Shown: positions 744 to 25,164 of the stretch, in pieces
Layout of the letters: each line of letters starts with the position of its first letter
How positions within the stretch are numbered: the first letter of the stretch is position 1
Assembly (NCBI GenBank): GCA_964016885.1
Contig: OZ024741.1
Location: 101,184,001 to 101,248,000 of the forward strand
Source: Eledone cirrhosa
Taxonomy: Eukaryota
DNA: 64,000 nucleotides
Direction: 5' to 3'
Program-made: the position numbers and the translations under genes
The notes under the pieces: model-generated
Seen by the model: the letters and a program-made list of their open reading frames with translations, nothing else
Told to the model about the DNA's origin: nothing
Databases searched by the model: none

Positions 744-744
744 G

Positions 745-1223: not shown

Positions 1224-2018
1224 ATGGCTTCCCACTCTGTTCTGCCAACGTACACGGGCGACGTAAGGTTGTGGTTCTCGCAATTAGAAGCTTTCTTCAG
1301 GGCGAACAGAGTCGACGAGGAACTACAGCATTCTGTGGTCCTCAGTGCCATTCCGCCGGCAATTCTCCCAGCGGTCAAGGACCTCGTGTTGGAGGCAACG
1401 GCAGAGTCGTCGTACGCGTCTCTGAAGGCTGAAATACTCAGCCGGACAGAACAGTCGTCAGAGAGGAGATTTAGGGCTCTGGTCCACCTGGAGCACATAG
1501 GGGATGGCACACCATCGAACCTCCTTAGGCGGATGAAGGACCTAACGGAGGGGTCTGCAGCGGAGACTGCCCTGCTGAAGCAGTTGTTCTTTTCGCGCCT
1601 GCCGACGAACGTACAGGCAATTTTGGCCCCCATGAGGGATTCGAGCTCGGTTGAGCAGCTTGCCTCATCGGCGGACAAGATATTCGAGGTGACGAATGCC
1701 GGAGACAGTGACCCCCTCGCCGCTGTTCAACACCCAGCTCGGGCCACACACGGCCATGCGATCTACGCGGCAGCACCAACGGATAGCTTGGCGATCATTG
1801 CGATGCAAAGGTCCATTCAGGAGCTCACCATGGAGCTCCACAAGATGAAGGCCTTGTGTGGTGGCTGTTCGCGCGCCCGCAGTCGCGGGAGATCGCAAAG
1901 TTTCAGACGACGGTCCAAATCACCTGGTTCAGCCTTATGCTGGTACCACGAGCGGTTCGCGGAGAACGCGAAGCACTGCGTGCAACCTTGCTCCTATCAT
2001 AAGGCGGGAAACGCTTAA
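1224..2018 (+). CDS. gag: Gag polyprotein
   Basis: 264-aa ORF with [17 protein letters not shown] and a C-terminal CWYH...C...C motif typical of metazoan Gypsy Gag. Confidence 0.92.
2006..2012 (+). promoter_or_regulatory. -1 ribosomal frameshift slippery heptamer G GGA AAC
   Basis: X XXY YYZ in gag phase two codons before the gag stop; the -1 frame is open (CGC TTA AGA GGT CCT CTG ATG) straight into pol at 2030. Confidence 0.85.
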
Positions 2019-2029
2019 GAGGTCCTCTG

Positions 2030-5000
2030 ATGGGGACAGATGGCCTCAACATAAAGCCACCAAACCGCCATTTCTTCATTAAGGACCTAATATCCGGAAG
2101 AGGTTTCCTCGTGGATACAGGAGCCTCCTGTAGTATCTGGCCGGTCCATTGCCTGAAAGATACCCCCATAGAGTCATCTGTCACGCTGCAGGCAGTTAAC
2201 CACTCGTCTATAAAGACGTACGGGCAAATCTCGCTCCCTCTTAAATTCCTAAATCTTCGAAGGGATTTTAAGTGGATTTTTACGGTTGCCGATTTGCCAT
2301 ATCCCATCTTAGGAGCGGATTTCCTCCACAACTTCTCTTTAACTGTGGACGTCCGTGGCCAACGCCTGGTGGATAACATCACCGGCTTTTCAATTCATGG
2401 CCAGGAAGCCAAGGCCCCAATAGTCAGCCCCGTGTTCTTTATTGCTGCCGCTGGTGACGCTTACCATGCGTTACTGGGTTCTTTCCCGGAGCTCACGGAT
2501 GGAAATTTTCGAGTCACTGACCCAACACACTCGACCGAACATTTTGTTTCCACCACCGGTGCCCCAGTGTTTTCGCGCCCACGCCGCTTACCGACGGAAA
2601 AATTAAAGGCAGCACGGTCCGAGTTCGACCATATGCTGCAGCTGGGCATTATTCGCCCATCTACGAGTCCTTGGGCTTCACCGTTACACATGGTGCCCAA
2701 GACTTCCGGCGACTGGAGACCCACAGGGGATTATAGGAGGTTAAATGCCATGACCGTCCCGGATAGGTATCCCATTCCCCATCTCCACGATTTTGCATCT
2801 TCACTGCAGGGGTGTAGGATTTTTTCTAAGCTAGATTTAGTGCGAGCCTACCACCAAATTCCGGTCAGGAAGGAGGATATTCCGAAAACTGCAATTACAA
2901 CCCCTTTCGGATCATTCGAATTTTTGACCATGCCTTTCGGACTCAGGAACGCCGCTAGCACTTTTCAGCGGTTCATGGACGAGGTCACGCGTGGTCTGGA
3001 CTTCGTTTATGCTTACATAGACGATATTCTCGTCGCTAGTTCCTCTCCGGAAGAGCATATGCGCCACATGCTTCTCTTGCTTCGGCGACTTCAGGATTAC
3101 CGCGTTCGCGTGAATCCTGCAAAGTGTGTTTTCGGTTCCACTTCCCTACATTTTTTAGGCCACCTCATCGACGCCGAAGGTATTAGGCCGCTCCCTGAGC
3201 GAGTTCAAGCCATACAGGAGTTACCGCCGCCTACTACACTTCACCAGTTGCGTCACTTCTTAGGCCTAATCAATTTCTATAGGCGTTTCATTCCTCATTG
3301 TGCTAATTGGCTATCTTCCCTTACTGACATTTTAAAAAAACGTCGTAAGAAGAATGAAGACATTTCCTTGACACAAGGACAGCTTCAGGACTTCCAGTCT
3401 GCCAAGACAGCCCTCGCTAGTTCTTCTTTGCTAGCCCACCCGGTACCAGAGGCCAAGCTTTCGCTTTGTGTTGATGCATCTGATACCGCTGTGGGTGCAG
3501 TTTTACAGCAGTCTTACGCTGAAAGCCAACAACCTTTGGCATTTTTCTCGAGGAAGTTGAAACCAGCAGAAACGCGTTATAGCACGTTTGGGCGAGAATT
3601 ATTAGCCATATATCTGTCGGTGAAACATTTCTCTCATATCCTTGAGGGGAGAAATTTTACGGTTTTTACCGACCACAAACCGTTGACCTTCGCTTTGAGG
3701 GCCAAAGCCGACAGATATTCGCCCAGAGAGACAAGGCACCTGGACTACGTTTCACAATTTACAAACGATATCCAGCACATTGCCGGCTCGCACAACATAG
3801 TTGCAGACGCATTATCTCGTTTGCCAATTAGCTCCATCTCGTCATCCCAGGACATCGATTTAGGTCGTTTAGCTGCAGACCAACCTGCACTCCAATCGTT
3901 GGACACTCTTTCCACCGAATTTGCGACTTGCATTTTCAAATATCTGCCCTTGTCCACCACCGACAGGCAGATCCTTTGTGATGTATCCACTGATGCACCA
4001 CGACCACTTGTTCCTGAGACTCACCGTCGAATTGTGTTCCTGGCTCTGCACAACATTTCTCATCCAGGATCGGCTGCCACAGTTAAACTTATAACAGCCA
4101 GATTCTTCTGGCCTAATATGAGGCGAGACATTGCTGTTTTTTGCCGTTCCTGTATCGCTTGCCAGAAATCGAAGATCCATAGACACATCCGGACTCCACT
4201 TGGTACTTTCACCACTCCAGATGCCCGGTTTCAACACATCCACATTGACATCGTTGGACCTTGGCCATTCAGCAGTGGATATTCATACATATTGACGTGT
4301 GTCGATCGTTTTTCGAGATGGCCTGAGGCCATCCCTTTACAAGACATGACGGCTGAGACTGTAGCACGTGCCCTGGTATCAGGGTGGATTACCCGCTTTG
4401 GGGTACCAACTACACTCACGACAGACCGCGGTAGACAATTCGAGTCCCATCTCTTCTCTGAGCTCACAAAAATAATTGGAGCTCAACGGATTCGGACCAC
4501 GGCCTATCATCCTGCTTCCAATGGAATGGTGGAACGATTCCACCGCCAATTAAAGGCCGCTCTTCGCGCCTATCCAGACTCTCAACGTTGGAGCGAGTAC
4601 CTTCCTATTGTGTTATTAGGAATTCGGTCATCAATAAAGGAGGACCTTGGGTTCTCCCCGGCCGAATTAATCTACGGTGCTCCTCTAGCGTTGCCTGGGC
4701 AAATGCTTGCCCCTGTTGATCTTGCTTTCCAAGATCCGCTTTCCTACGTATCCCGTCTGCGTTCTTATTTACAGGACCTGCCGCCGATGGATACGAGGAA
4801 GCAAACTGTAAAACATGCGGTCCCGAGGGACATTGCCTCGTGGACCCATGTGTTCGTAAGGAACGATGCTGTGAGACCACCCCTCACACAACCATACTCT
4901 GGACCCTACCGTGTGTTAGCACGCACTGACAAACATTTCACAGTAGACGTTAAGGGGTCCAGAGAGACAATTTCGGTGGATAGACTGAAAAGGGCACACA

Positions 5001-5158
5001 ATGACGCTCATACACCCGAGCCACAAATACCCCAATCTTTCACCATTGTGCATACACCTGCTCCTTCTGCCCCACCATCACCTACATACAAGACTACGAC
5101 CCGTTCCGGTCGGAGAGTCCACTGGCCCAAAAAGTTCTGCCAAACTATTTTTATATGA
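2030..5158 (+). CDS. pol: Pol polyprotein (aspartic protease, reverse transcriptase, RNase H, integrase)
   Basis: LVDTGA protease; YIDD RT; DAS/RELL/TDH/ADALSR RNase H; H..H..C..C zinc finger plus HIDIVG/TDRG/GMVER integrase; no stops in 1042 aa. Confidence 0.97.
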
Positions 5159-5545
5159 ACTGGCCATTGGAGCCTTATATATATATATATATATTTTTTT
5201 GTTTTTGCTGTTCTTATTTATTTGATTTATTGTATTGCAATGTACCTCTCATTTCACTGGATGTATATATATGTTTTTTCGTTTCCTTTACAATGAACAT
5301 GTTAAGCTACATTCTTCTCTTTGCCGGTTTATAAGTTTGCAATGTAAATTTACCGTTGATAACCGCGCATTTAGTAAGAATGCTTATTTCTCTGGTCGCT
5401 GGCCTCTGGACCCTTCCAGATCAACGCATTCTCAACATCGACCATCAACTTCGGCTGCTATTTCTAGCACTTTGCGCAACTCATTTTTTCTGAAAAATTT
5501 TTTGTCTACTGTGAGTTTAAACACCGAATACGCTCACTCAGCGAG

Positions 5546-5682
5546 ACAACAGCAGCAACAACAGCAGCAGCAACAGCAATACAGCAGCAACAGCAATACA
5601 GCAGCAACAGCAATACAGCAGCAACAACAGCAATACAACAGCAGCAACAGCAACAGCAATACAGCAACAACAGCAACAGCAA
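5546..5682 (+). repeat. (CAG/CAA)n compound microsatellite in the retrotransposon 3' untranslated region
   Basis: Direct reading: CAACAGCAGCAACAACAGCAG... interrupted by CAATA. Confidence 0.9.
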
Positions 5683-5968
5683 CCAAAGCCAGAGAATTTA
5701 TTTTTGCAGCACTCTTCCTGTGAGAAAATCCATTCGGAGGTTGGAAATTCACGATATACCACAGAACAGAGACCACCTGCATTCATTCTCTGGAACACAC
5801 TTTCTTTCCTGCTGTCATGTGACTGCACACCTGTGAACTATATTTTGTACATTTGAACTTTTGACATCTCTTACTTCCATTACTCTGTACCATATTTTTC
5901 ATGCCTCTTACATGCTCGCCATCTTACTCCATGCATGCTTCTTTCGATTTTTTATGTTTTAAAAATCT

Positions 5969-5980
5969 GGCGGGGGATAC
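5969..5980 (+). promoter_or_regulatory. Polypurine tract (plus-strand primer)
   Basis: GGCGGGGGATAC immediately upstream of the 3' LTR TG. Confidence 0.7.
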
Positions 5981-6380
5981 TGTAGTAAGAGTTGCCTCCC
6001 CTGCCACGACAATTGAATCGCTGTTCCCTAGACAGGAAGTAGGTGGAGTTGCTTCCCTTTGGGATTGACCAAACTCCCTAGTGGTCACTTCCGGTCAACA
6101 GAGATAAAAGGAGCGATTAACCGCGAAATCTCTCTCTCGCCTCCTGATTCCCGAAGTGGTAACATCTTCGACCATAGCTGGATTCTTTCTGGACGACCCT
6201 TTCGTTACCAGCACAATCCAGCTCACCAGCCTGACAACTTCACAATGGCATTATTGCCATCGGGTAACAACCCTTTACCTTATACACCTTTGACTTCTAT
6301 GAAGTAAAACTTTATCACACACACCAGTACTCTTTGTCTTTTATATTATGTTGCATGTGCACCGATATCTATTTCCTAAA
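5981..6380 (+). repeat. 3' LTR (400 bp)
   Basis: Copy of 344-743. Confidence 0.95.
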
Positions 6381-7110
6381 GTGTCTTGGGCAAGTGGCTT
6401 TACTATAGCCTTAGGTTGACCTAAGCCTTGTGAATGAAATTTGGTATATGGAAGCAATGTAGAAGCCTGTCAAATGGACTGTACCTGTAATTCAAAGGTC
6501 TGGCTTTCTCATTGTGTCAAATTGATTCAACCTGTAAATTACATTCAGAGTACACGTGTCTGTGGAATACTCAACCATTTACACATTAATTCACATGTTC
6601 AACATCAAAACCAACAGAGGATCCACCATTTATCCATTACATTCATATGATAAATAGAGAGATAATTGATAGAAGTGATAAAGAGAGAGATAATTGCTGG
6701 AACTTTCCAGAACAGAGATATCCAATATGTATTTATCCACTTGACACAGACATGGGTAAGTGATTAATAAGTTTGCTTTGCAAACATGAAGCCCTGGGTT
6801 GCATCCTACTTCATGGTGTCTTGGGCAAGTGGCTTTACTATAGCCTTAGGTTGACCTAAGCCTTGTGAATGAAATTTGGTATATGGAAGCAATGTAGAAG
6901 CCTGTCAAATGGACTGTACCTGTAATTCAAAGGTCTGGCTTTCTCATTGTGTCAAATTGATTCAACCTGTAAATTACATTCAGAGTACACGTGTCTGTGG
7001 AATACTCAACCATTTACACATTAATTCACATGTTCAACATCAAAACCAACAGAGGATCCACCATTTATCCATTACATTCATATGATAAATAGAGAGATAA
7101 TTGATAGAAC
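6381..7110 (+). repeat. Tandem duplication (435-bp period) of a SINE-containing host segment; further copy at 1-343
   Basis: 6381-6674 = 49-342 and 6768-7110 = 1-343; identical ORF translations at 109, 6441 and 6876; diverged relatives at ~18190, ~30170, ~41300. Confidence 0.9.
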
Positions 7111-7628
7111 TTTCCAGAACAGGAATATTCATATAAAATATCAACACTACACTCTGTAAAATGGTTGGCATTAGGAAGGGTATCAGGTCATAGAAAGCAT
7201 GCCAAAAGGGGAATGTATATCCAGGGAAAAAAATATTCTGAATAAGTACTGTCTTGGACCAAAATGACCCATCCAACCCATAGAAAAATAGATGTAAATG
7301 ATGACGTTTCATACAAATATGCTTTAATATTAGTTGACTTACAAAGCTTTGGGGAATTTGGAAATGTAGTTTACACAATGCAGATAACTATAAATAATAG
7401 TTGATAGCTCTAAATAATAATAAAATATATCAGGTAAAGTACACCTAGAGATGAAAAAAGGTAGACTGAGATGCCTACAGTGAAGTGAAGCATTTCTGTC
7501 CACTTTTTCCATTTCCAGGGGTACTTTACTTAGTATATTTAACTATTATTTAGAGTTATCAACTATTATTATAGTTATTTGCATTGTCACAACTATATTT
7601 TCAAATTTCAAGTATCTTTTAATCTTAC

Positions 7629-7873
7629 CTGTTTGTAACTCCAATTTATCATAAAATATCTTCAAGTCACTATTGTGTTTAGTCAAAATTTCATAAACTA
7701 TTTTCATTTCTTCTGTGTTTTTTGTTGGGTAAGATACAAAGATATCATATATTGTGGACTTCACTGTTTGGGTTTGAGCAACTGTGCGGCTCAACATTAT
7801 TGAAAATATCTTCTGGTTGATTTCCACACAGACACTTAGAAATTTGTTTTCAATATTTTCATTTTCAGATAGT
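7629..7873 (-). CDS. Macro-TIR gene exon (linker + start of TIR2): RLSENENIENKF...STIYDIFVSYPTKNTEEMKIVYEILTKHNSDLKIFYDKLELQT(G)
   Basis: cttttag acceptor, gtaag donor; YDIFVSY and IFYD..L..G TIR motifs. Confidence 0.88.
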
Positions 7874-10800
7874 CTAAAAGAAAAAGATCAAATGTTATCA
7901 GCAAGCGAACACCTGACGGTAACTAAATAATTATGTGAAATAAAGTGTTTACCATGAGAAATAAATAATATAGTATATATATAGAGTAATGCAAATGCTA
8001 AAGAGTTAAGCTATATTTTCCCTTTCTACGTGTCAGAAGGGGAAGAACAGTTCCCAACCCTTTTTTTTTTCAGGACCTTCAAGAATGATAGGAGAAAGGA
8101 AGGTAGTTAGTTATTCTCAGACAGGAAATGTGGCCTGAATGATTACAACAGAGTAGACTCTGCCAAAGGCAAGCAATTGTCAAGTGGTGGTGTTAAACCA
8201 GTTTTTTTTTTGTTTGGTTTTTTAACATCAACTCCATTATCATTACTAGCAGAAAAACCACCCTTCAAGTGGTTTTCTGCTAGCATGTGTTGTGTGCATA
8301 TTGATATTATACGCAAGTATATATGCATGTAGATATGATACATCAAATAAAATCGTAATTGACAATATACACAGAAATTGAATGAAGACTGCATTACACT
8401 GTCTTATGTAATCAGTAACGTAATCCATGATACATTAAAAAAAGATGATATTATATATAAACTGCATTAGGAGAAAATTAGTGATGGAAATATATGAATG
8501 TTTATTTAAACGATTGCTAACAGGAAGTGTTGACATTTGAAAATTTTAAAGAAGTGAATCTTTAAATAAACAATAAAATATATTTATAGCTACGAAATTT
8601 AGTAGATAAATTATGTAATATTCATTCATTATTTATTCAAAGTAATCCAACTTATTTTACCAGTGGGATAAAAAATTATAAACCGTACGCAGTCTTGTAC
8701 TCCTTACTTTATTATAGTTTAGATTTTTATTCCACAGTTCAAGACAAGCTCTACAGATATGGCAGTACCAACAGTCTGACTTGTCAGAGATGCACACAGG
8801 GTGATGAAACTGTCCTACATGCAATCACCCAGTGTTTTTGCATTTCAGAGTTGTGGGATTCTGTTGAACAACTGTTTTCACAGTATAGACAGATACAGCT
8901 ATCAGCCAGATCTATATTGAAGATTGAACTGCCACTTTCTTTTAGAAGAGAGGTGTGGCAAATCTTCCTCTGTCTGGTAACTATGGTAAAGGAAGCCAAG
9001 CCTTCATCAACTTCTTGAAGTTTCACCTGAATAGAAAGGTGAGGGTAGAGAAGGAAGTGTTGCTTTCTAGTGTGTTTTATGCAAGATGGGTGACAGTGTC
9101 GAGATTGTCAAGGCTGAACAGGCCTAATTCACTATGCTTTTCTAAGTAAGAGGAAAAGACTGGGAGAGGGTACTTTTAATGCCCGTGTAGTAACAGAGTA
9201 ACCCAGAGCTTTGTGTTAGGGTTTCTCCCTGGGATTACCCTAAATTGCAGTTCCCCACTATTGAGGAACTTGTCTTTGTTGATTTTTTTTATTGTTTTCT
9301 TTATTTTTTTTCTATTTTTATGTATATTTACTACAATTACTATTATTGTTATTCCTACTGTTTTCACCCCCTTTCCTTTAACTACTATAAATCTCACTTT
9401 ATGTTGTGTTTGTTGCCTTTGTCCTTGTATTGCCCACAATATTCTGAGCCCTTGTGGCCAATAAAAGAAATTATTATTATTATTTTTTTAATTTTTTTTA
9501 ATGAAAATCATAATAATCATCATTATCATTACCACCATTTAATGCCCATTTATCCATGCTAGTGTGGGTTAGACGAGTTGTCCCATTGTGAGACAAGCCA
9601 GATCAGATGACCATGTCTTGCTCATACAGAACTGATTTTGCCTTGGTTTTTTTATGGTTGAATTCCCTTCCTAAGCCAACTACATTTATAGTGTGTTCTG
9701 GGTGTTTTTTGTTGTGACACCTACACGACCACTTTACAGTGTGGACTCGGCAACACTCAACCGATTTTGTCAATCCACCATATAATAATGTTGTAGGATT
9801 TCAGGATACAAAGAAATAAAGAATCAGAACACAACAGGCCTGTCTGAGTGGTTTCTGACAAGGGAAAATGATCTTGCTTGATTATAGATGTAGCATGTCC
9901 CTTTGATACAAGAGTGAAAGAGAAGGAAGGGGAGAAAATTAACTGGCATCAGGATCTAAAGTGGGAACTGAAAAGGATTTGGGACTGTCATGAGATCAAG
10001 GTTGTCCCCATCATTATAGGAGTGCTAGGTACTTTCTCGAAGGTTGTGGGTAGTAGTTTGATGTTGATTGGACAATTTTTCTGGTTAAATAACATCAATG
10101 ACAGATATCAAACTCATAATAATATTGCTTTCTAATTTAGGTACAAGGCCAACAATTTAGGAAATATTTGGGGAACTTAGAGCTAGATGATATTTTGCAT
10201 GCAGAAATCAAAGAAAGGGTTAGAGGGATATATTTTAAAAGAGTAAAAATGATTTTTAAATCCAAATTGAATGTGAGAAATCTAGTCACTGCAATGAATA
10301 TCTAGACAGTTGCAGTGGTTAGATATAGTGCATCTATTCTCAGTTGAACTGAAGAAGAAATATAAAAATTAGATAGAAATACAAGAAAGTTAATGACATT
10401 ATACAGAACTTTACACCCTAAAGCAAATATCAATAGACTATACATGAATGGTGACAGAGGCCTCATCAGTGTGGATCATTGAATAAGGAGTGAATGAAGA
10501 ATGCTTGTAGAATATCTGGTAAACAGAGATGAAGAGTTGTTGCAATACAGAAGATATGAGTATAAGTACAGTATAAATGGTTGGAACGGAAGAGTTTAAC
10601 CAAAGAGCTGAAGAGAAAAAAAAAATCTTCTAGGAATGAGAATGCATGGTCAGTTTGAAAGAAATACACAGGATATCAAGGATAAAACAACATTGTGACA
10701 TAGCTTAAGCAAGGCGATTTGAAACATGCCACTGAAAGAATTATAGTTGCAACACAAGATCAAGCTCTTACTACCAATTAGGTGAAGTATAACATCTACA

Positions 10801-13800
10801 AAACTTCTGACACTCAGAAATACAGGCTCTGTGAAAAAAAATTGGAAAATGTAACCCACTTAGTAAGTGGATGTGAGAGCCTTGCACACAAAAAAAAAAA
10901 AATACAAGCGCCATTATGATAAAATCTGTCTATACCTTCATTGACATTATCAGCTACTCCCACACAATCCCAGGATAATATTCTTTAAAATTATAATGGA
11001 TCAGAATGTAATTAAGTAAAAATTACTACTTTGCTATTAAACAATCACCATTTTCCATGTAGAAAGACAGTTGTTGTAGATCATTTCTTAAATCAACCTC
11101 TAGTTCAGGGTTTTCCTTACTAATATAAAATGGTTTCAGGGTTGGGTGGGTTGTGATGCTTTGAATCACATCTTATATGAAAGTACTGTCCTCTTAGATG
11201 GGTCAGAGGACCATGTCTCATATGTTCTAATTTTTGGCATGCTTTCTACACCTACTACTTTGCCGAGGGTACAGGGTGCATTCTATCATGACACTAACAC
11301 TAGTGGATTTGTCTGGAAACACACAAGCCTGAAAAGTACTCTGACAGGAACCAGGCTAAGTGAGTATGAAAGAGAAGATAGATATTTCTGTGTAGATGGG
11401 AGAGTGATGGTGGAGAAAAATGCCTAAAATAATTTAATACAAATGCACAAAGACAATAACATGCATAAAAACTTACCGACAGTCCATATACTGTATGTTA
11501 CTAATAACCGGAGGTAGATTATCCATCGTCTCAGTATAGAGTGGAACCAAATTAAGGTCCTCAGCCTGTCGTCTATAGCAGAGAGCCATATTGAATTCAT
11601 CTTGGCAGGACTTAGAACTTAAGTAGGATGTAGTGAGAATAATTATAATACTGTTGAGAAAGAAAAACAAGAGCTGTTAGATAATTTATCTATGTAGGTT
11701 AAGAGGGCTCTTTATTTGTGTCAAGGGCACAACAGCTCCTCTAGTTTTGGTGACACAATAAAATGTACCTAGTATACTTTGTTAAATGGTTGGTGATAAT
11801 AGGGCATTCAGTTATTGAAAACTTGCTAAACATCTAGTTGGAAGGACTCTTCAGTTGTCAAAAAATTGACAGCCTCTCTAGTGCTGGTTCCACAACAAAA
11901 TGCACCTGGTGCACTATGTATCAGGAAGGAACATATGTGAGATATGGCCTTTAGCCTGTCTGAGAGGTCAGTGGCTCCAATTAAGTATTGACTTGGTCCG
12001 TGAAGATCCATTCAACCCTTGCAAGCAGGTAAAATGGATGTTTAATGATGTTGAATGTGATTATACCACTGAAGATTTATGAGCTAACAAAGATGAGTGG
12101 CCATGTTATGGAATACTCAACCACATACTCTATAATACATGATGGACTGTACTTGTGATTCTGTTATACTTTGTCATACTGAGTCTCTTTGAGAATTGCA
12201 TTACTGGTGCAGAATAATCATCTATTTACATGCTAATTTTACAAGTTGTCTATTCCATTGATTGAACATTTGGGACACTCAATCATATTATAACCATTCA
12301 ACCATAAAATTAGATAGACCAAAATAATTAGAGTAATTATTGATTAACAAACAATATACTTGATAGTCAAAGTACATTACTTTATTACTGTATCAAAATA
12401 GACATAGTAGATATTAGTATGTTTCAGCTGTACTAAGTGGTTGAAAAATACTATAAATTTGTATCTGTACAGAAACAGCACAAGATTTAACCAAAGCTGT
12501 GAGAACTGTGTACATAAACACACACAGTTATAGGTGTAAAAATGTCTTCAAAATCTGAAAATGATGATAAATGTGCTCACATGGCATATGTGAGATGTAT
12601 GGTGCTATTCCCTGCAGGCACCTCTTTTTCCTACTTTTTTTCCATCACCAGGAGTACTTTACCCCCTTTGTTCAACTATTATTTATAGTTATCAACTATT
12701 ATTATAGTTATCTGCGGTTATAGGGCAGTGGATTGGCAGTATCAGTAGAGGGTCGGATGCCATTCTTTGCAGCAAAGAGTTACGGCCCTTTATGATCTGA
12801 GTTCAAATGCTGAGGTTAACTTTGCCTTCCATCCTTACGGGGTCGATAAAATAAAGTACCAGGAATACACTGGAATAATTGCTGGCCTTGTGCCAAAAGT
12901 AGAAACAATTATTATAGTTATCTGCATTGTGACCACTAAATTTTAAAATTTCAAGCTTCATAATACTTCATAAGTCAACTGGATGTTTAAATATTCAGAA
13001 AACGAAGAAAATTACCATTTACATCCAAACATACAGGAGTATACTTTTTCAGGCCAGATATCTTTTTCATCAACTTTTATCTTTTTATGAAAAACCTTTA
13101 CATTTGAATTACACTTTTCCAGCGATTCTTTCAGTAATTTTGCCTTATTTGAGTCTGTTTGGCTGTAGGAAATATACACATCATTCAAATTCTTTTGTTT
13201 CGAAATCTGTAAAAAAAAAATTTAGAGTGAAAAAGTCTGACACCAATTATTATTTGGCAACAAAGTGATTCTCTCGCTGAGTGAAACATAGATTATATGA
13301 TGTCTGCGTATGAAATGCAATGCTGTATGTTAGTGAGGTAAGGACATTGAATGTAGAGGATGTGTGAAGGTTAGAAAGAAATGAAGCTAGTATGCTTTGC
13401 AGAATGTGTAATGCTGGTGCACATGAACATAAGGCACAGACGAGTTGAAGGAGAAACTGGACATAAGAAGAATCAGATACACTGTATTAGAGAGAAGATT
13501 GCAGTGGTATGGAAAGGTGATGTATATGAATGATGATCATTGGATGTAGAAGTGCTAAGAGTTCCTAGTAGATGAAAGTTGTAAAATAGGAAGATTGACA
13601 AAAACCTGAGCAGAGGTGGTGAGAGTTTATCTCAAAACACAGAACCTCACAGAAGAGAGCATAAGTAAAGGAAAGCTCTACTGGAGAAGACCCATCCAAC
13701 CCATAAAATGGATGTAAAAATGACGGTGATAATATTACCTTTAAAAGATTGGATTTTTCCCAGACTTTCTTCAAATCTTTAAATGTAGCAATACATTTTT

Positions 13801-16800
13801 TATTGCGCTCATCAATATGATTTATATCACTGGTGTAAAGAACAATCTTGAAACATTTCAAAGGAAGGCCAATTTTCATCCAATTACAAGCTGCTTCAAC
13901 CATTGCGATGAGAACTGGAATCATACCAAAACCCTATAAAATATAAAAGAGGAAAACTGAAATATAATATTTCCATGAATTAAGATCTGTAACCTGCTAT
14001 TTTCAACTTCAATAAATACTTCTGATTGCACAAAGACACCATCATTATCATCGTTGTCATACATGTATGCGAGACAAAAAGAGTCAAATACTTCTAATTA
14101 AAATCACTTAATATAAAAGTAAAATTCTAGCTGCAAGAGACTGCAAATACCTCCACTGTCATACTCTCATCACCCTACCTCCTTCTGCATTTCTCCACCT
14201 ACTGAGGGAGGATACAATGATTTCCCCTAGTGTTAGTGCCACAATAAAATCCACTCAGTACACTCTGGTAAATGGTAATATTGCCAAGATGTACCCTCTG
14301 TAAAGTAGTAATGTTGTTATCACAATAAAATGAACCCAGTATATGTAGTAGTGCAGATGCCATGATAAAATGCACCCAGTACACCCTGTAAAATGGTAAT
14401 ATTGCCAAGATATAATATACCCAGTACCCTCTGTAAAGTAACAGTGTTGATACCATGATAAGATACATCCAGTACCCTTTGTAAAATGATAGTGTTGGTG
14501 CCATGATAATATTCATGCAGTACATGAGGTAGAGCTGATGCCATGATAAAATTCTCCCAGTACACTTTGTAAAATGGTTGGCATTAAGAAGAGCATCTAG
14601 CCATAGAAACCATGCAAAAATGGAATGTATGATTAAAACATGGTCTTCTGACCAGTTCAGTCTCAAACCATGACATACTTACCAAGCCATGCCAGCATGG
14701 AAAACGAATGTAAAACAATGATGATGATGGTGATGATGTGAAGTATGAATTTTGGTTGTTCCTCTGTAGTTAGTTCATTGAAAATATTTAATGATCTGAC
14801 ACCAAGCAGTGACCATAAGTAGTTGCAAATGGTTTCAGAGTGGCTGACAGAGAAAGATAACTAGCATATTGTTTGAGTTATTTGGATAATAGGTAAACAT
14901 GCTGTTCATCTTTAATTATATGACATATAGTGAGTGAGCTTCAGCGTTTACATTGAATTGGTGAAGTCATTAGTGCAGGGATTTAGACAAACGCATCTCA
15001 CTCCATTCCTGGAATCCTTAACACCTCATCGATCCCAGACATGTACAAAAATAAATAAAGCAGTAAACAAAATAATGGTTTCTGATTTAGGCACAAGGCC
15101 AACAATCCAACTTAGCAACTTTGACTATCATCCATATGGGATTAATAAAATAAAGTACCAGTCCAAAGGTGGCGGATTGGCAGAAATGTTACACTGTTAG
15201 ATGAGATACCTTGTGGTATTTGTTCCAGATAGATTTATTATTTTTCATGTTGATTTTAACGATGCTAGTTAATGTTAAATTAATATATGTAGTTAACTGT
15301 GTTATATACAAAACTATTAATGTTAAATGTGAGGTTGTAACTTATGTAATAAATTGTGTTGCAAACAACACCACTAATGTTATATTAATAGAAGGCTGTC
15401 AATGCTATGTAATAGTGTTATATATCATATATGAGTAGAAACTGTAATAGCAAACTGGTTAAAGAGGAAGAGGAGGTGAAAAAATACTGTTCTAGGAGTT
15501 TGTTTAAAGATATATGAAGTTTGAACTTCTAGTGGTTTGTTTAAAGATATATGAAGTTTGAACTTCGGTAATTTCTTTTTAACTAGTTTATTATATAGAG
15601 TAGTTAAAAAGCTGGGTCTTACAAGGTTCTGTACTGCATAAAACCACAGTAGCAAGACATTTGTGAAAAGTAGAAAACAGCACTATAACTGCATCACATC
15701 AAAAATTAAAGTTTTTATTTTAGTTTACAGCAAATTTTCACCACCAAAGACTAGTTTGTTAATTCAAACATTTGAATTAACAAATCAGTCTTTCAATATT
15801 TTCTGCTAAATTAGGTTATTAATAATTAAAGATGGTGACTTGATAGTTGTTAGAGCATTAGATTAAAAGCTTTGATGTTTGTTTCAGGTCTCTTTGTTCT
15901 GATTTCAAATCCCATTGAGGTGAATTTAGCTTTTCATCATTTCTAGTTCAATAAACACAACACCAGTCCAGGAGCAGTGAATTGGCTGAATTGTTAACAA
16001 CAGATACTAGCAGGAATGGAAAGACCAATGGAAACATAGTTTCCTTGGTCTGATCCAATGATGAGCTGCTTTCATATTTTAATAAGTGAATAACAAGTAT
16101 TTTAAGGTAATTTTCTTGCTCAAGCAGAGGTTAGCCATGTAAGCCCTATGACAAGCTTTCAACTTTGCTCTATGAAAGTGACTGGGTAAGAGAAATGATG
16201 CGAATAGAGCCAGTAATGAGTGTTGTGAATAGAAATAGAATGAGATGGTTGGGTCATATGTTAAGGAAGGCTGAAAGTGACTGGACAAGAAGAGTGATAG
16301 AAATGAATGTAGAAAGAAGTGTATGAAGAGGAAAACCAAGAAAGACATGGCCAAAGATGATGGAGGAGAAAATGAAAACCAGATGATTGCTGAGGAGGGA
16401 TGCAAACAATAGGGCAAAATGGAGAAGTATGTCATGAGGCTATCATGGCTAATCCATTTTAGGGGAGAAAATGAGCTTAAAATGCCTATTGGATATAAAT
16501 AATTAATTTATGTGTTCTATGGTGAGTTATATAATTTTGTTGAGATTCCTTATTGTGGTGACTACATCATCATCACAACCATCAGTTTTATGTTCATGTT
16601 CCCATATTAGTATGGAATGGACAAAGTGCTCTTCATGATGCCAACCTTCATTTTTTCTTATACGTAAAGAATGGATCTTTGCACAGCTAACCAGTAAGAT
16701 CTTTATTTATGGATAATGTAAATAAATATTGCTACCAGGGTTAGTAATGGCACAAATGTGAACAGAAAAGGGTTACACACACATATATATATATAAAGCA

Positions 16801-17635
16801 GTGAATTGGCAGAGTCATTAGAATGTCGGATAGCATGCTTTATGGTATTCGTTCCGGCTCTCTGAGTTCAAATCCCACCGCGGTCAACTTTGCCTTTCAT
16901 CCTTTCGAGGTCACGGAGAGGGACGGGCTCCACCAAGCTTAAAATGCTTTAGAAACAGTGTATGCCAATATGGCACCCCTACGACTCAATTCAGCAGTTA
17001 CAGGACAATACATCATCATATGTATATATATGTTACAGTTACAGGACAATATATGTATATATATGTTACAGTTACAGGACAATACATACATACATATGTA
17101 TATATATGCACATATACTAAGAGAGAAAGATATCAGTTTAACATATGTTTATTTTGGTAACATGTGATTCACTCGTGGTCTGGCTTCAAAACCACTCAAA
17201 GGATAAAAACATAAAGGAAAAACAAAGTATAAAAAAATATTGAGAATGGAATGAAATAAATACATAAAGAATAACAATTAAAAATAGAAATAAAGGATAA
17301 AAATAATAATAATAACAGTCTCTGATTTAGGCACAAGGCCAGCAATTTGGGGGGAGGGGAAAGTCAATTAAATCAACCAGTGCATTACTGGTACTTTATT
17401 TTACCAACCCCGTAAAAAAGAAAATAAAAGAAAAAGGATAAAACTTTTCTTTTCTCCTTTGATCCTTCAGCCCCTATTATTTATTATTTTATCCTTCATC
17501 TTTGCTTTTTACTTATTGCTCTCTAGTTTTAGGCTTTGTATGCTTTTTTATTGTTAAGTTTCTTTTATTGTTACTTCTAATCTCAGCATTGGCTTATATC
17601 CTAGTTTTTGTTCTACACAACGATCCCCTGGTCAC

Positions 17636-17693
<58 letters not shown>

Positions 17694-17771
17694 CCCCTGC
17701 TCTCCATATATTTATGTGTGTGTATAAAACAAACAAAGGGAGTGTGGTAAGATACCAGGTGGACCATATGT

Positions 17772-17821
<50 letters not shown>

Positions 17822-20800
17822 CAAAAAGCATCCAGCACACATTGTAAATGTGGTTGGCATTAGGAAGGGCATACAACCATAGAAATCTAGCCAGAAACAG
17901 TCCTATATGAGCAAGACACGGTCACCCAACCGAACTTGACTCTAATGGGACAAACCCGTCTAGCCCATGCTAGCATGGAAAATGGACATTAGAGGATGAT
18001 GATGATGATATATATATATATATATATTCACCAGACACGCACATTTATGGAAAGCAGAGGATAGCTGTGTAGAAAACAAATAGGGATGCCAAAAGTAGAC
18101 ATATACCTACTGACAAATATTGTGAAAAATATTGTGTGTATAAAAGAGCGAGAGAGACAGAGAGTGAGTGTGTGTGTATACAAAGGGTTTCGTTCAATTT
18201 CCATCTACTAAATTTCACTCACAAGTCATTGGCCTGGCTGAGGCTATAGCAGAAAACACTTGCCTATGATGCCATCACTTAGTAGGTTAGAACCTGAAAC
18301 CACATGATTATGAAATATACTTCTTAACCACACATCCATGCCTGCATTTAGATAGAATTAATTAATCCATGTGTATCTGTGATGAGTCATGTAATTTTGC
18401 TGTTATTCCATACTATAGTCACTATACAAAAAATGAAAAAAGAAACAAAAATAACCAATTGTCAGAACGGAACAAAGAAACAATGTTTCCATTGGTATTT
18501 CCATTGCTGATAATATCTGCAGGTCACAGCTCTTGGCAGAAGCGGAAGTGTGGGAGGCAGGGGTGATCTGAGAATGCATGGGAAAAGCATACACATAAGC
18601 AATAATGATAATGATGAGCTAGATCTGCTCCAGATAGAGCTGCTACTTCACTGAATTGAGAGACCAGAGCTTTGATATTACAAACATGTGGTTAGAATAT
18701 CTCTGGAAATAATTGCTGGACAGATTTTATGGGCAAAACCAGGAGACCCAGGAGCAGATACCAGGCAAAATGGTTGGATATCACCTATATTTTTGGTTGC
18801 TTTCACTAGGGTTATCCAGTCAGATCAATTGGAGACGGTTGCTTCTGACAAGACCGGCTGGAGGGAGTACTTGAGGACTCTTCCTCCATGACCCCAGGAG
18901 GAGCAGGTCATGGAGGAGCAGGTCTGCATCTCTCTTCTCACCATAAAGTACATTTGTATTCTATATTATACCTATTATACCTTACCTTCCATTGGAACAA
19001 CAATCAACTAATAGGAAAATGTTGAGATAATGCATTATTAGATGAGTATTAGATTGATAGGTTAATATAATTCCTTCTTTCTTTGAGGATAATATAACGT
19101 ATATACTCAAATATAAGCTGAGGAATATGTGACAAAAAAAATTGATGGTAAAATGAGGGGTTGGTTTATATTTGAGGTCAATATTTTGACGATTTTCACA
19201 AATTCTACATAAGTAAGGTACTAAAATATCTGGAGTGATTATTTCACAATGAAACACTGTTTTTCTACGTTTACTACATTATAGTTGGTGTTATTTATGC
19301 ATTCCCTAAAAAATATTTCCAACAAATTTTTATAATTTGAACTTTTTTTATACATAAATATCCCATACACATATATGCATACACACACACGCTTTTCTCT
19401 GACAATATTTTTTTCTTTCAATCTTAATTCTGATTTGATTTTATTGCTCTCTCTCTCTGCCTCCCCTCCCTCTTCTATGAATCCCTATACAAAGTTCTCG
19501 TATCCAATCTTTTGCTTTCAAAGTACTCCTAGCATATGAGTAACCAGAAGTAAACAAAAATTTGAGAAAGTTATTGAAACTTTACACAATAAAAACTCAC
19601 TACATAATGGAATTGTGAGGAAAAACTATATTCTAAATGACACTTAAAACATTTTGAACATCAAAATATTGAAATGTTATAAATATTTTTTATACTCATG
19701 AGAATTTCTAAACCACGCCATCTAAACAATGTGTTGATTAGCTGCTTTGGCTTATAATTGGTGTTTGGATTTTTGCCCATTTCTTAGACATAAAATAGGA
19801 GAGTCGGTTTATATTCAAGTATATACAGTAGATATTTGGCATTGAGAAAAGAAGGGAATGAAGCTGATCGTCAGATCAGACTAAGGAAATCCAGTTACTG
19901 ACACTAACAGCTGGTCACAACTCCTGATAAAAGGAGGTGGGATTTGAACTCAGAATGCAGGGAGCTGGATCAGATACTGCAAAGTATTCCATCTGACTTT
20001 TTAACAATTCTGTCAATCCACTCCCCACTGAAATGGTACTTTATTTAATGAACCCAAAAGGATGAAATTTAAAGTTGGCTTAAGCAGGGTTTGAAATCAG
20101 AGTGGAGTGAGTTTTTAACTCTTTTGATACCAAACCACCTGACCTCTCCTCACTCTCACTGGTTCTATGAAACAAAGCTATTTATTTTAAAGAGTTTATA
20201 TTTATCTAAAAATCTTTCATCATAATTTTATGTAAGAACCTTTAAGTTAAGCTGCAAACATCAGCTTAATGACAAGAAAGTCAATTAATTTACGACATCC
20301 CTCTAAATTTTAGATTATCTTCAAAATTATTTGAAAATAATAGGCAGTGTATTTCATTAGAAATATGGTAATGAATTGATGGCAAATTGGCAAAGTTGTT
20401 AAAATGTTGGACAGAATGCTTTGTGGTATTCGTTCTGGTTCTCTGCTTCTCTCAGTTCAAATCCCACCAAGGTCATCTAAAAAAAAGTACCAGTCTAGTA
20501 CTAGGGTTGATTCTTCTTCTATATCTCTTTCTCCTTTCCTTTCTCTCACTCTTTCCTTTTTTGAAAGAAATCTGCAGTACTCAAGCCTGTAGAAAGGATG
20601 GACTATGCCAGGTTTTTTAAAATGCCCTAAGAAACATTGTGTCAATATGCCGCTCCTACAACTCCCTCAGGCGTTAGGGGTCCATGCTAAACCATACCAT
20701 GGTATTGTAAAGGTTAATCCAATGCCCTATCAACACAAATAGAATGAAAAAATACTCACTTGGTTTCCAGTGCCAAGTAATGGTGTTATTACTGTTGTGT

Positions 20801-23515
20801 CTTGAGAGTTAAATATTGGCATAAAACCTCTGAACATATCTCCTATTTGATCAAGTATATTGCAACCTAATCGTCTGTAATACAAAACAATAAATTAATC
20901 AACTTCAATAAAAATAGAATTTTTAACGTATGTAAGCTGGTACAATGCAAGTTTGACAATTAAATAGTCGAACAAGTTGGGCATATTAACCCCTGGAGAT
21001 GGAAAAAAGTGGATAGAATCTTCTGTGGGAATTGAATTCACATCTACTGTATGTTAGACAGCTGTGCTATCATTACACCAAGGTGAGACTGACCACTTCT
21101 CCATCCTTTTTTAAGCCTTATCGTCAAACCTAGTCATTTTGATGATGCAACAAAAGTTACTGTAAAGTGGTCATTTTAGTGCCACGACATAAAGCAACCA
21201 ATCCATACTGTAGAGTGGTTGTGTTGGCGACATGACAAAAAGTGCCCAGTCTACGCTGTAAAGTGATTGTTTTGATGCCACAATAAAAGGCACCCAATCT
21301 ACACTGTAAAGTGATTGTTTTGATGCCACAATAAAAGGCACCCAGTCCATATTGTAAATGTGGTCAACATTAGGAAGGGCATCCAAGTAGAAACCAAGCC
21401 AGAAACGCTTCTGTATAAGCAAGACATGGTCATCTGATCTGACTTGTCTCATAACAGGACAACCCATCTAACCCATGCTACCATGGAAAATGGACATTAA
21501 ACAATGATGATGATGATGAGTGAATATGAATTTTGAAAATATGTTAGTTTCTTGTAAGCTGCTACAATATTTGTTTGATTATTAAATAGTAGAAGCTAGG
21601 CATATAAATCCCTAGAGATGGGAAAAAGTAGACAGTATCACCTGTGGGAAGTGAACTCACGTTTGCCATTACATTACATCAAAGTAACTCTCTCATTACT
21701 ATAAATCAAATAAAAACATAGACTATGATTTTCAAATCATTTTGAGGGAGTTAGTAATATAGTAACTAATTTTTTTGCTGTTTGAAGCATAGCTTAACAA
21801 AGGTTTTTTCACTTAAAATTATAATGGAAGGTTTTTAGATAAATAAATAAATGATAAAACAAAATAGACACAAACCTTTCAAAACATGCCAGTCTTAAGA
21901 ATGGAACATCTTCTGGTAAGGGCTTGGATAACCAGCATGAAAAATATTTTCTTAAATCTAATTCTTTATCCAAAGCAAGATCATACACTGACACTTTCAG
22001 TTTTTTTAGCAGTGCTTGGATTAAAGTTTTACTTGTAGTGTTGTAATTATCTGAAATACAAGAAAATGTTAGATTTAAAAGATGACAATTGTTCAGTTTA
22101 CTGATTTCGGTGAAGCTGGGACATTGCTTTGAAGGAATTTTTAGTCGATAATATTAACACCAGTACATATTTTTTCAAGTCTGGTACTTATTTTATCAAT
22201 CACTTTTTGTCAAACAACTAAGTTATATGACAATAAAGGACATAAAAACACACAAATACAGGCCTCCACTAAATTTTACAACTAAGTTATATGACAATAA
22301 AGGACATAAAAACACACAAATACAGGCCTCCACTAAATTTTACTCATAAGGCATTGATCAACCTAAGGATAAAGTAGAAGACACTTGCCCAAGGCATCAT
22401 ACAGCAGGACTGTACCCGAAACTATGTCATTGCAAAGCAAATTCCATGCCAGCATCTATAAGTTAAAAATAAAATTGAAGTCAGTCTGAAGCACTGAGGA
22501 GCATAAGACCAGAGCATATCTCAACTCCATATGGTGGTAAATTATTAGGAGTATTAGACTCCTCTTTGGATAACATGCCAGTCACAAGGTTAATCTCTAG
22601 CTGTTGTTGATATTCATTTTTCAGCTGAGGGGAATAGAGCAACATGAAATAAAGTGCCTTGCTCCACCACCTGGCCAAGGAGTCAAACCCACTACCTTAT
22701 AATCATGAGGCTAACACTGTAAATACAATGTCACATACCTTCACTAAGACTGAAGATATACAGATATATTGCCAACACAATACCAATTCAAGTATATAAC
22801 AATAATGATGTTGATGATATCCTTCCTGATGGCAACCTTTTTAGTCACCTCTTATAACACACAGGGATACAGTATACCTATTCTAAAAACTGGGATCCAC
22901 ATATCATGACTAAAAACATAAAAATACATAGCAAGGTTTAACATTTTAATCGGGTCAAAAAAGAAAGTCCAATTAGGAACCCAGTTCATTCTAAGCAGGA
23001 AACTTTCAATTCCTTAGCTCAACTCACAAAATGACTAATCAGCAATGTAACACATACAATGATCCTAGAAGTAAGAGTCTAAATGCTTGGTATCCCACTT
23101 TAATCCTTTTGTTACTCTATTTCTAATGAAATACACTGTATTTGAATTAATCTAATTAATGAAAACTTTGGAGGGATTTACAAAAAATATGACATTATAT
23201 TATTTAGATGGTATTTATAATATAACAAAAGATCCTCATATCAAATTATATTAGGAGGTTTTAATTTGAATAGGAACCCTTTAAAATAAGTGGCTCTGTT
23301 TTATAGAACCAGGGGCAGTTTAGGGTTGGTTGGTACAAAAAGGGTTAATATTGTGAATGTTTAATGCTTAGATACTTACTAGGGAAAGCTGATACGATGA
23401 GTAAATCAACTTTGTCTTTCTCCTTATAACTTGTGATGTCTCCCAGAAGAAGTTCAATCTGGCAAAGACCATGCATGGTTGAAAGGGACAAAGTTTCAAC
23501 TGTCTTCAAACCCAT
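7629..23515 (-). CDS. Spliced gene encoding a Macro domain-TIR-TIR(partial) protein, at least 410 aa, 3' end beyond the left edge; join(23380-23515,21876-22050,20760-20874,13739-13933,13016-13206,11477-11650,7629-7873)
   Basis: Seven exons with canonical AG/GT sites and matching phases (1,2,0,0,2,2) give a stop-free protein. Macro motifs: IELLLGDIT...VDLLIVSAFPN...TPLLGTGNQG...FKIVLY. TIR motifs: DVYISYS...IIIILTTSYLSSKSCQDEFNMAL...LVPLY, then YDIFVSY...KIFYDKLELQTG. Confidence 0.88.
8735..9485 (+). mobile_element. 3' fragment of an L1/Tx1-clade LINE (zinc-knuckle region, 3' UTR, (TTA)n tail)
   Basis: DKLYRYG...CQRC...ETVLHAITQC CCHC motif, frameshifted continuation, AATAAA followed by ATTATTATT. 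Confidence 0.6.
9790..10945 (+). mobile_element. Degenerate fragments of a restriction-like-endonuclease non-LTR retrotransposon
   Basis: IIDVACPFDTRVKEKE...YQDL-like/VVPIIIGVLGT RLE motif at 9878-10040; HPKANINRLY, QDQAL and RLC...ENVTHLVSGCESLA remnants at 10400-10930; many stops. Confidence 0.7.
11477..11650 (-). CDS. Macro-TIR gene exon (TIR1 C-half): CIIIILTTSYLSSKSCQDEFNMALCYRRQAEDLNLVPLYTETMDNLPPVISNIQYMDC
   Basis: ctcaacag acceptor, gtaagt donor; TIR betaC-alphaC motif with Glu at 11596-11598. Confidence 0.9.
12716..12907 (+). mobile_element. tRNA-derived SINE with 18-bp TSD
   Basis: A box TGGCAGTATCAG, B box GAGTTCAAAT; TSD ATTATTATAGTTATCTGC at 12698-12715 and 12908-12925; family members at ~16800, 17320, 20385, 25638, 31900, 33270, 38310, 40200, 41695. 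Confidence 0.85.
13016..13206 (-). CDS. Macro-TIR gene exon (TIR1 N-half): ISKQKNLNDVYISYSQTDSNKAKLLKESLEKCNSNVKVFHKKIKVDEKDIWPEKVYSCMFGCK
   Basis: poly-T-acag acceptor, gtaat donor; TIR box-1-like DVYISYS. Confidence 0.88.
13235..13660 (+). mobile_element. Degraded RTE-clade LINE 3' fragment
   Basis: Similar to 26950-27330 (RLYDACV..AMLYGSE.W, LERNEASML, RRLRWYG motifs) with indels. Confidence 0.7.
13739..13933 (-). CDS. Macro-TIR gene exon (end of Macro domain): GFGMIPVLIAMVEAACNWMKIGLPLKCFKIVLYTSD...VWEKSNLLK
   Basis: tttatag acceptor, gtaata donor, 65 whole codons, phase 0/0. Confidence 0.86.
14228..14738 (+). mobile_element. SINE or RTE-LINE 3' element with (GAT)n tail and tandemly amplified ~35-45-bp internal module
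   Basis: Repeated GCCA(C/T)(A/G)ATAAAA...CCCAGTACAC..TGTAAA units, then TGGTTGGCATTA.GAAG.GCATC and CAGCATGGAAAACGAATGTAAAAC(GAT)n; relatives at ~7150, 9530, 17820, 21180, 27440, 28150, 30330. Confidence 0.75.
17639..17820. repeat. (TA)n and (TG)n microsatellites
   Basis: Direct reading. Confidence 0.95.
20760..20874 (-). CDS. Macro-TIR gene exon: RRLGCNILDQIGDMFRGFMPIFNSQDTTVITPLLGTGNQ
   Basis: ttacag acceptor, gtgagt donor; P-x-L-G-T-G phosphate-binding loop of Macro domains. Confidence 0.88.
21876..22050 (-). CDS. Macro-TIR gene exon: NNYNTTSKTLIQALLKKLKVSVYDLALDKELDLRKYFSCWLSKPLPEDVPFLRLACFE
   Basis: tttcag acceptor, gtttgt donor; phases 1/2 fit both neighbours. Confidence 0.85.
23104..23344. 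mobile_element. piggyBac-type MITE with TTAA target duplication; inverted diverged copy at ~20119-20375
   Basis: TTAA|TCCTTTTGTTAC ... GGTACAAAAAGGG|TTAA. Confidence 0.65.
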
Positions 23516-23527
23516 TCTGACAGTTTC
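23380..23527 (-). CDS. Macro-TIR gene, first coding exon (likely ATG at 23515): MGLKTVETLSLSTMHGLCQIELLLGDITSYKEKDKVDLLIVSAFP
   Basis: ttcag acceptor, gtaagt donor, strong Kozak context agaATGG, Macro GDIT motif. Confidence 0.88.
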
Positions 23528-25160: not shown

Positions 25161-25164
25161 TTTG

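Follow-up and report, generated by a model that had tools for sequence, protein, structure and literature searches.

What kind of protein is encoded by a gene that appears to fuse a Macro domain to a series of TIR domains in an octopus genome? The gene lies on the minus strand of a 64,000-nucleotide stretch of the Eledone cirrhosa genome (contig OZ024741.1, 101184001-101248000; genome size 3.0 Gb), hereafter the window, where an original prediction made from the DNA letters alone had described it as a hidden, Thoeris-like module of one Macro and two TIR domains. Judged from its sequence, it is an intact, single-copy gene, the octopus member of an old invertebrate family, with the predicted domain order Macro-TIR1-TIR2-TIR3-acidic tail-CaaX. 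With moderate confidence, we read its product as an NADase that is gated by ADP-ribose, tethered to membranes by a prenyl group and probably derived from bacteria.

Sixteen of the 17 peptides named in the original prediction were placed on the minus strand as it had stated, and the seventeenth crosses the junction of exons 2 and 3. The seven exons it had joined in frame have AG/GT ends, agreeing phases and no stops, and an ortholog bears them out. A search with exon 2 returned one relative, Octopus bimaculoides XP_014768475.1 (hereafter P0001), a RefSeq model named 'uncharacterized' that has 861 amino acids (aa) and is 77% identical. Further exons emerged when P0001 was compared by tblastn with the window and the 80 kb to its left. 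This extension, which had been proposed for counting the TIRs, showed that the gene continues for about 22 kb past the left edge in five further exons and that the TIRs number three rather than two. The gene and its exons are as follows:

1..23527, minus strand: part of the gene inside the window, with exons 8-12 beyond the left edge
23380..23527, minus strand: exon 1, with the ATG at 23515, the start of the Macro domain, its Gly-Asp motif (23443-23438) and the SAFP loop
21876..22050, minus strand: exon 2, Macro stretch carrying the family motifs DLR and CW.S and the invariant Glu103
20760..20874, minus strand: exon 3, Macro stretch that includes the second ligand loop, P-x-x-x-T-G-x-Q
13739..13933, minus strand: exon 4, last part of the Macro domain, then the helix leading into TIR1
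13016..13206, minus strand: exon 5, TIR1 from betaA to alphaB, with a degenerate BB loop (conserved Asp and Gly lost)
11477..11650, minus strand: exon 6, TIR1 alphaC, conserved betaE motif and, in the catalytic position (11598-11596), a Glu that few family members have there; TIR_2 match at E 1.6e-7
7629..7873, minus strand: exon 7, last part of TIR1, a linker and the first elements of TIR2 (betaA, BB loop)
contig 101183544-101183402, minus strand: exon 8, outside the window
contig 101182499-101182302, minus strand: exon 9, outside the window
contig 101181002-101180392, minus strand: exon 10, outside the window
contig 101163607-101163529, minus strand: exon 11, outside the window
contig 101162135-101161503, minus strand: predicted exon 12, outside the window, with which the model ends in CLLL

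Together, exons 8-12 encode the rest of TIR2, TIR3, an acidic tail and the C-terminal CLLL; TIR3 and the CaaX end lay beyond the reach of the original prediction. Exons 1-11 joined give 754 aa without a stop, 78% identical to P0001 over 754 columns, which is far beyond chance. With exon 12, whose junction is inferred and less certain, the model totals about 964 aa. The acceptor of exon 7 was corrected to 7873, which is in frame and supported by the ortholog; 7834 is a weaker alternative. The start Met at the exon 1 ATG is the same in orthologs, and since an AG acceptor precedes exon 1, there is probably an additional, untranslated 5' exon. Exons 1 and 2 have one genomic match each. Members of a cuttlefish cluster have complete 758-aa frames that fit on contigs of 2.5-2.9 kb, so these contigs appear to be spliced transcripts.

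Residues 1-205 of P0001 match no Pfam family at E<=1, and Pfam found no Macro family in the single exons or in 115 homologs (E<=1e-5 or 1e-4); in P0001 it returned three TIR_2 stretches. When a profile of residues 1-205 was compared with the PDB, all 12 matches were Macro domains, all of them weak (E 0.03-1.8), and the alignment places the second loop of the family on the PARP14 loop. An AlphaFold2 model of the Macro domain and TIR1 of P0001 reached a predicted local distance difference test score (pLDDT) of 94.7 and a predicted template modelling score (pTM) of 0.92, with the two domains packed as one rigid predicted unit, and its best Foldseek matches are macroH2A, PARP14 and Af1521. By VIA-align, the Macro part superposes on Af1521 with Z 16.8 (root-mean-square deviation 2.7, 178 residues aligned) and on PARP14 with Z 16.8, and the TIR part on the RPP1 TIR with Z 15.9 (root-mean-square deviation 2.1, 133 residues aligned). 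A full-length model from the cuttlefish cluster folds each domain well (pLDDT 87.2), and its Foldseek list contains Macro domains only. These models identify the N-terminal domain as a member of the Macro superfamily, in agreement with the expectation that this region would adopt a Macro fold.

Residues were counted in 83 three-TIR eukaryote rows and in 126 bacterial-type TIRs. Glu occupies the catalytic column in 122 of the 126 bacterial-type TIRs, in TIR2 of 81/83 rows and in TIR3 of 75/83. In TIR1 it is found in 6/83, and Gln stands there in 57/83. The six TIR1 rows with Glu comprise five rows of the cephalopod clade, the octopus gene included, and Tubulanus. At window positions 11596-11598, the cephalopod TIR1 reads Asp-Glu, the pair in most animals being Glu-Gln; the Glu of the catalytic position seems to have been regained. 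Octopus TIR1 has this Glu and has lost the Asp and Gly of its BB loop; by analogy, the lost Gly would be equivalent to the BB-loop Gly that AbTir needs (10.1101/2022.05.07.491051).

The two halves of the domain are conserved in different copies. TIR2 fits the N-half consensus better than TIR1 does in 78/83 rows, and TIR1 fits the C-half consensus better than TIR2 in 79/83. The N-half score of TIR2 is 0.86, compared with 0.89 for the bacterial TIRs themselves, and the octopus TIR2 in the window matches all 11 of 11 N-half consensus sites. TIR3 has no BB loop. Across the family, the full catalytic signature (Glu, betaA and BB loop) occurs in TIR2 only, TIR1 and TIR3 having it in part. The TIR domains of the original prediction are upheld by the TIR_2 stretches, and its tandem enzymatic TIRs are too broad a description, the signature expected of an enzyme being complete in TIR2 only.

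In AbTir, two TIRs that meet at the BE interface form the active site together (10.1101/2022.05.07.491051). Because TIR NADase sites need two TIRs in this arrangement, we infer a split active site, in which the BB loop and the catalytic Glu would come from TIR2 and the partner betaE surface from TIR1 (or TIR3), within or between chains. Cyclase TIRs all carry an aromatic residue at position E-4, the WxxxE pattern (10.1101/2022.05.07.491051), and such a residue was found in 0/81 TIR2 domains and 6/126 bacterial TIRs. Since TIR2 lacks this residue, and with it the cyclisation Trp, the predicted product is linear ADP-ribose, which the Macro domain could bind, allowing feedback.

The same residue patterns can be read in another way, namely that the protein is a non-enzymatic adaptor whose Macro domain reads ADP-ribosylated proteins, as in PARP9 and PARP14, and whose three TIRs do no more than nucleate TIR-TIR assemblies with TLR or MyD88-like partners at membranes. 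The absence of Glu from TIR1 in 77/83 rows and the missing BB loop of TIR3 would suit such a role, the nearest folds include the non-catalytic readers macroH2A, PARP14 and PARP9, and proteins of the ecTIR-DC classes have been hypothesised to be adaptors or regulators (PMC6321704, accessible part). Against this, TIR2 keeps both its Glu and a nearly bacterial N-half, and neither a death domain nor a receptor link was found by Pfam in P0001. We consider an adaptor unlikely.

With respect to the Macro pocket, positions G25-D26, S42, Y48, W85, E103, P135 and G140 are conserved in at least 90% of the rows in each of two groups, 31 eukaryote and 131 other rows. G25 and D26 reach 97-99%, S42 and E103 are invariant, and Y48 is nearly so. 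The Gly-Asp adenine motif and the P-x-x-x-T-G phosphate loop are both present in the family, and the Macro domain is proposed to bind ADP-ribose or an ADP-ribose conjugate, acting as a sensor. MacroD-type hydrolases carry an Asn-Ala-Ala-Asn motif and a Gly-rich first loop. Both are absent from the family Macro domain, which has SAFP..Y and LIGAL in their place.

This replacement speaks against the possibility that the Macro domain is instead a hydrolase, an off-switch that destroys the TIR product or strips ADP-ribose from targets and makes the protein a self-limiting signal generator. The invariant S42 and E103 and the near-invariant Y48 could nevertheless be catalytic, the hydrolases Af1521 and OiMacroD are among the best fold matches, and fusions of family members to NUDIX suggest product turnover. 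Macro domains in TIR anti-phage systems have also been predicted to regulate by targeting cyclic ADP-ribose (cADPR; PMC9503650, accessible part). A sensor is the better fit to the sister Macro subfamily (loci L021-L024, 30% identical), since there DUF4145 follows the Macro domain without a TIR in two of the four loci (L023 and L024, one below the Pfam cut-off). On balance, a hydrolase seems quite improbable. Elsewhere in the sister subfamily, the Macro-only gene of L021 is divergent from a WYL regulator, and the Macro-only genes of L021 and L022 precede a 365-aa gene of unknown type, that of L022 being a look-alike open reading frame (ORF).

The sensing NADase that we prefer would be held at membranes by its C-terminal end. 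The octopus model ends in the CaaX-type sequence CLLL, encoded by the predicted last exon. Cys stands at position -4 in 54/83 three-TIR proteins (50 with the typical aliphatic pattern) versus 2/153 other rows, the background frequency of Cys being 1.3%, and a median of 3 Lys or Arg residues is found among the 12 that precede the CaaX. The tail itself is acidic (24% Asp plus Glu). This end is a candidate prenylation site and a likely lipid anchor, and its prenylation would keep the switch at membranes. The original prediction had seen no transmembrane (TM), leucine-rich repeat (LRR), death or SAM domain in the window, and the whole protein agrees: Pfam finds TIR families only in P0001, the highest 19-residue hydropathy is 1.61 and lies in TIR3, which indicates no TM segment, and the Macro domain begins at residue 3, leaving no room for an N-terminal TM stretch.

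A search of 50%-identity cluster representatives with a Macro-only profile gave 1285 matches at E<=1e-3 and 775 at <=1e-10, of which the best 150 were examined. Among the 155 proteins examined overall, a TIR follows the Macro domain in 128 of the 129 with room for one, most of these TIRs being recognised by Pfam TIR_2 as well. Cnidarians, placozoans, lophotrochozoans and ambulacrarians all have members of the family. Among the animals named are cephalopods, bivalves, gastropods, Owenia, nemerteans, Lingula, Macrostomum, echinoderms, hemichordates and cnidarians, with several paralogs in sea urchins, sea stars, abalone and jellyfish. With these queries, chordates, ecdysozoans and sponges did not appear among the organisms named for the 120 matches listed out of 132, nor in motif look-ups. 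Three TIRs are present in 83/104 eukaryote rows, each TIR position clusters as its own group in FastTree, and the Trichoplax form carries a double Macro domain. Most of the non-eukaryote matches are Macro-TIR proteins of about 340 aa, so that the Macro-TIR unit of the architecture sought in bacteria does exist there: Chloroflexota, Cyanobacteriota, Bacteroidota, Pseudomonadota, Acidobacteriota, Longimicrobiaceae, Ca. Uabimicrobium and Ca. Xenobiia are named, many of the rows being assigned to bacteria from their source and tree position.

Trees were built with FastTree for the broad set and from subsets of 39 and 37 Macro rows for detailed analysis. In the 39-row tree, 15 eukaryotes fall on one side with support 100/99. 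When the 37-row tree was rooted with four sister-subfamily rows and six long rows were dropped, the bacterial Macro-TIR rows grouped alone in 0/200 bootstrap trees, and the animal subtree approximates species relationships. The animals form one clade, and the donor was probably bacterial. Because there is a single eukaryote clade and no bacteria-only grouping in the rooted bootstraps, it is likely that the gene was taken from bacteria once, before cnidarians and bilaterians diverged. One haptophyte protein (P0122, Pavlovales) has a Macro domain and a degenerate TIR, after which another TIR begins. It adjoins the animals in FastTree, joins a long flatworm row in the 39-row tree and was left out of the 37-row tree; transfer, contamination and a long-branch artefact are all possible.

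Nine GTDB loci were used for bacterial gene context. Six carry an in-frame Macro-TIR gene, one has a frameshift in the TIR, one is unreadable at that point and one has the Macro domain alone. Of the 107 ORFs at these loci, 93 were scanned with PADLOC, with no ThsA match among them, and 43 with Pfam; no conserved signal-making partner gene was found near the nine loci. The defence context anticipated by the original prediction is clear at one locus of the nine, L016, from Bacteroidota. There, L016:1399-14954 holds a candidate defence system of a TIR gene, nSTAND1, a TPR-S-patatin-Macro-TIR protein (1249 aa), a subtilase, a metallo-beta-lactamase and a caspase. Uma2 (PDC-S03) genes lie near four of the nine loci; the Uma2 family is common in these taxa, and these genes were set aside.

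N- or C-terminal fusion partners across the family comprise caspase-like CHAT, NB-ARC, pYEATS, NUDIX, kinase, FHA, Hsp70 and type VI secretion system (T6SS) sheath domains. In P0049, P0053, P0060 and P0067, the Macro(-TIR) part stands behind the T6SS sheath domains VipA/VipB, one of the four also having kinase and FHA domains. A glycogen-synthase-type glycosyltransferase is fused to Macro-TIR in P0109 and P0114 and is encoded near a Macro-only gene at L017:10363-11835. Presence is patchy, at 5/301 and 1/301 sampled genomes, centres included. By their sequence patterns, the fusion partners and the patchiness look conflict-like, and the L016 cluster and the DUF4145 and WYL associations of the sister subfamily point the same way. 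This appearance, together with the multiple paralogs of sea urchins, sea stars, abalone and jellyfish, makes it least probable of all that the protein is a domesticated switch of NAD metabolism or degeneration, non-immune in animals like SARM1 in axons, even though the octopus has a single copy, the animal tree roughly tracks species and most bacterial loci lie outside defence clusters.

The preferred reading of an ADP-ribose-gated NADase can be set in a longer history. An early animal ancestor would have acquired a bacterial one-gene Macro-TIR conflict protein and then triplicated its TIR, and the output of the present protein would be NAD+ loss or an ADP-ribose signal within a defence or cell-death response. 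The full sequence of events, in which a bacterial one-gene Macro-TIR defence switch entered the cnidarian/placozoan/bilaterian ancestor, its TIR was triplicated, the NADase halves were split between TIR2 and TIR1/TIR3, and a prenyl anchor was gained, is a tentative proposal and probably wrong in at least some part.

Several observations weigh against these proposals. With respect to the split site, the C-half conservation of TIR1 could equally reflect packing against the Macro domain, and the full-length model has a pTM of 0.57, with a flexible TIR1-TIR2 linker and no predicted intramolecular TIR-TIR site. Kin, paralogs and isoforms make up the 83 rows, whose residue patterns may therefore be single ancestral events. 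The CaaX is missing in 29/83 rows, among them the cuttlefish ORFs and the model from O. bimaculoides. The coupling to TIR is not absolute (L017, L021/L022 and P0103 have none), and its frequency carries a selection bias, as the profile was built from Macro-TIR proteins and the best 150 of 1285 matches were seen. Eight of the nine bacterial loci have no clear defence cluster and have housekeeping neighbours, PADLOC finds nothing in the Macro part of 6/6 members, and a single octopus copy is less typical of arms-race genes. Finally, the descent from a bacterial gene raised by the original prediction is favoured by the rooted tree, but the approximately unbiased (AU) test leaves bacterial monophyly unrejected (p 0.078), and the bootstrap of the rooted tree, with its six long rows dropped, had not settled.

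To our knowledge, very few animal TIR proteins are known as enzymes. The family adds a further candidate, which would carry its own ADP-ribose sensor and whose close counterpart in bacteria is about 340 aa long. If the full sequence of events proposed above is true, it would be a self-amplifying, ADP-ribose-sensing NADase of invertebrate immunity, apart from SARM1 and TIR-STING, and the Macro domain would be a new sensor for animal TIRs. If the TIR1/TIR2 split is true, it would show duplicated domains dividing an obligate two-TIR active site.

The remainder of the window is rich in repeats. A long terminal repeat (LTR) retrotransposon lies in intron 7 on the plus strand, antisense to the gene (window 344-6383). 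One of its frames is gag-like (DUF7041), another of 1051 codons holds reverse transcriptase (RT), RNase H and integrase, and no env was seen in the element. Its two LTRs are identical over 403 bp, which suggests a recent insertion. It is flanked by three near-identical copies of a unit of about 300-390 bp (~1-343, 6384-6675 and 6770-7110). Upstream of the gene are LINE-type RT fragments at 26028-27152 (plus strand; RVT_1 with a PHD-like finger) and ~23930-25200 (minus strand). A 57-bp minisatellite of about 390 copies with 94% matches fills 42063-64000 and continues past the right edge; its stop-free frames exceed 3000 codons, its units vary by indels, and it is probably non-coding.

The gene is not hidden, as had been claimed, because a RefSeq model of its ortholog exists and the family most likely corresponds to ecTIR-DC 8, a class defined in Gerdol et al. 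2017. The accessible part of PMC6321704 labels the 1,082-aa protein TrispH2_008457 of Trichoplax H2 as ecTIR-DC 8 and draws TIR domains only. The accessible part of the atlas in PMC13142454 lists a 1,082-aa Trichoplax H2 TIR protein that has the family Macro motifs twice and three TIRs, and it is the only one of this length among the Trichoplax H2 rows seen there; seven other protein lengths are shared between the two lists. The assignment thus rests on proteome, length, motifs and TIR count. The same atlas lists the octopus ortholog with three TIRs as 'not in supported clade' and annotates no Macro domain in it. As far as these sources extend, the animal family is catalogued but uncharacterised. 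Unlike the description given here, the ecTIR-DC 8 entry in the accessible part of PMC6321704 shows no Macro domain, CaaX, bacterial link or function. For this orphan family there is now a fold and a probable origin, together with predictions of its catalytic residue and product and a putative membrane anchor.

No paper on Macro-TIR, TIR-Macro or macrodomain-TIR was found in the searchable literature, to which Gerdol 2017 and Burroughs 2015/2020 do not belong, and within that scope the bacterial Macro-TIR unit, the animal clade, the TIR1/TIR2 split and the CaaX are apparently new. The fusion is not described in the accessible parts of 10.64898/2025.12.03.692087, PMC9503650, PMC8195603, PMC7159879, PMC9334734, PMC5549309, PMC6836662 and PMC11350192.

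Among known systems, type II Thoeris likewise pairs a catalytic-Glu TIR with a Macro domain able to bind linear ADP-ribose derivatives; the ThsA Macro domain binds ADP-ribose and not 2'/3'cADPR (PMC11204291, accessible part). In Thoeris, however, the TIR protein ThsB and the TM-Macro protein ThsA are separate genes and the TIR makes the signal, whereas the octopus family has one chain, Macro then TIR, with a TIR that resembles an effector and not a signal maker alone. The Thoeris Macro domain also belongs to another subfamily: PF20016 ThsA_Macro and PADLOC ThsA have no match here at E<=1, and among the fold matches EcThsA comes in 39th place (Z 12.3 versus 16.8). ESM Atlas searches with the Macro part gave leads only, all below 0.9, with the ThsA lead among them at 0.82. 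We therefore reject membership of type II Thoeris on the grounds of a single gene, no TM and no ThsA_Macro or PADLOC match to the Macro part.

SARM1 is similar in being an animal TIR protein with an N-terminal sensing domain over an NADase TIR. Its N-terminal domain senses nucleotides. It differs in its ARM-SAM-SAM architecture, the octopus family having a Macro domain, three TIRs and a CaaX end, and Pfam found no ARM-SAM, death domain or LRR-TM arrangement (SARM1, MyD88, TLR) in P0001. According to the accessible part of PMC13142454, SARM1 is also of probable bacterial origin and forms clade 8 of the atlas, whereas the octopus-family TIRs fall in no supported clade.

TIR-STING (bacteria, oysters) and TIR-SAVED (bacteria) also place a nucleotide sensor and a TIR effector in one chain, and the TIR-STING structure 6wt7 is among the fold matches. 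The sensor of the octopus family differs from theirs in being a Macro domain with a predicted ADP-ribose-like ligand. The pairing recurs in bacterial ESM Atlas clusters of PF01661 Macro and TIR_2 (1234 and 144 members), which are unaligned leads and, unlike the octopus family, have a Macro domain that Pfam detects. From these comparisons, the best reading is that the octopus-family protein works like a sensor-TIR fusion and shares its chemistry with type II Thoeris.

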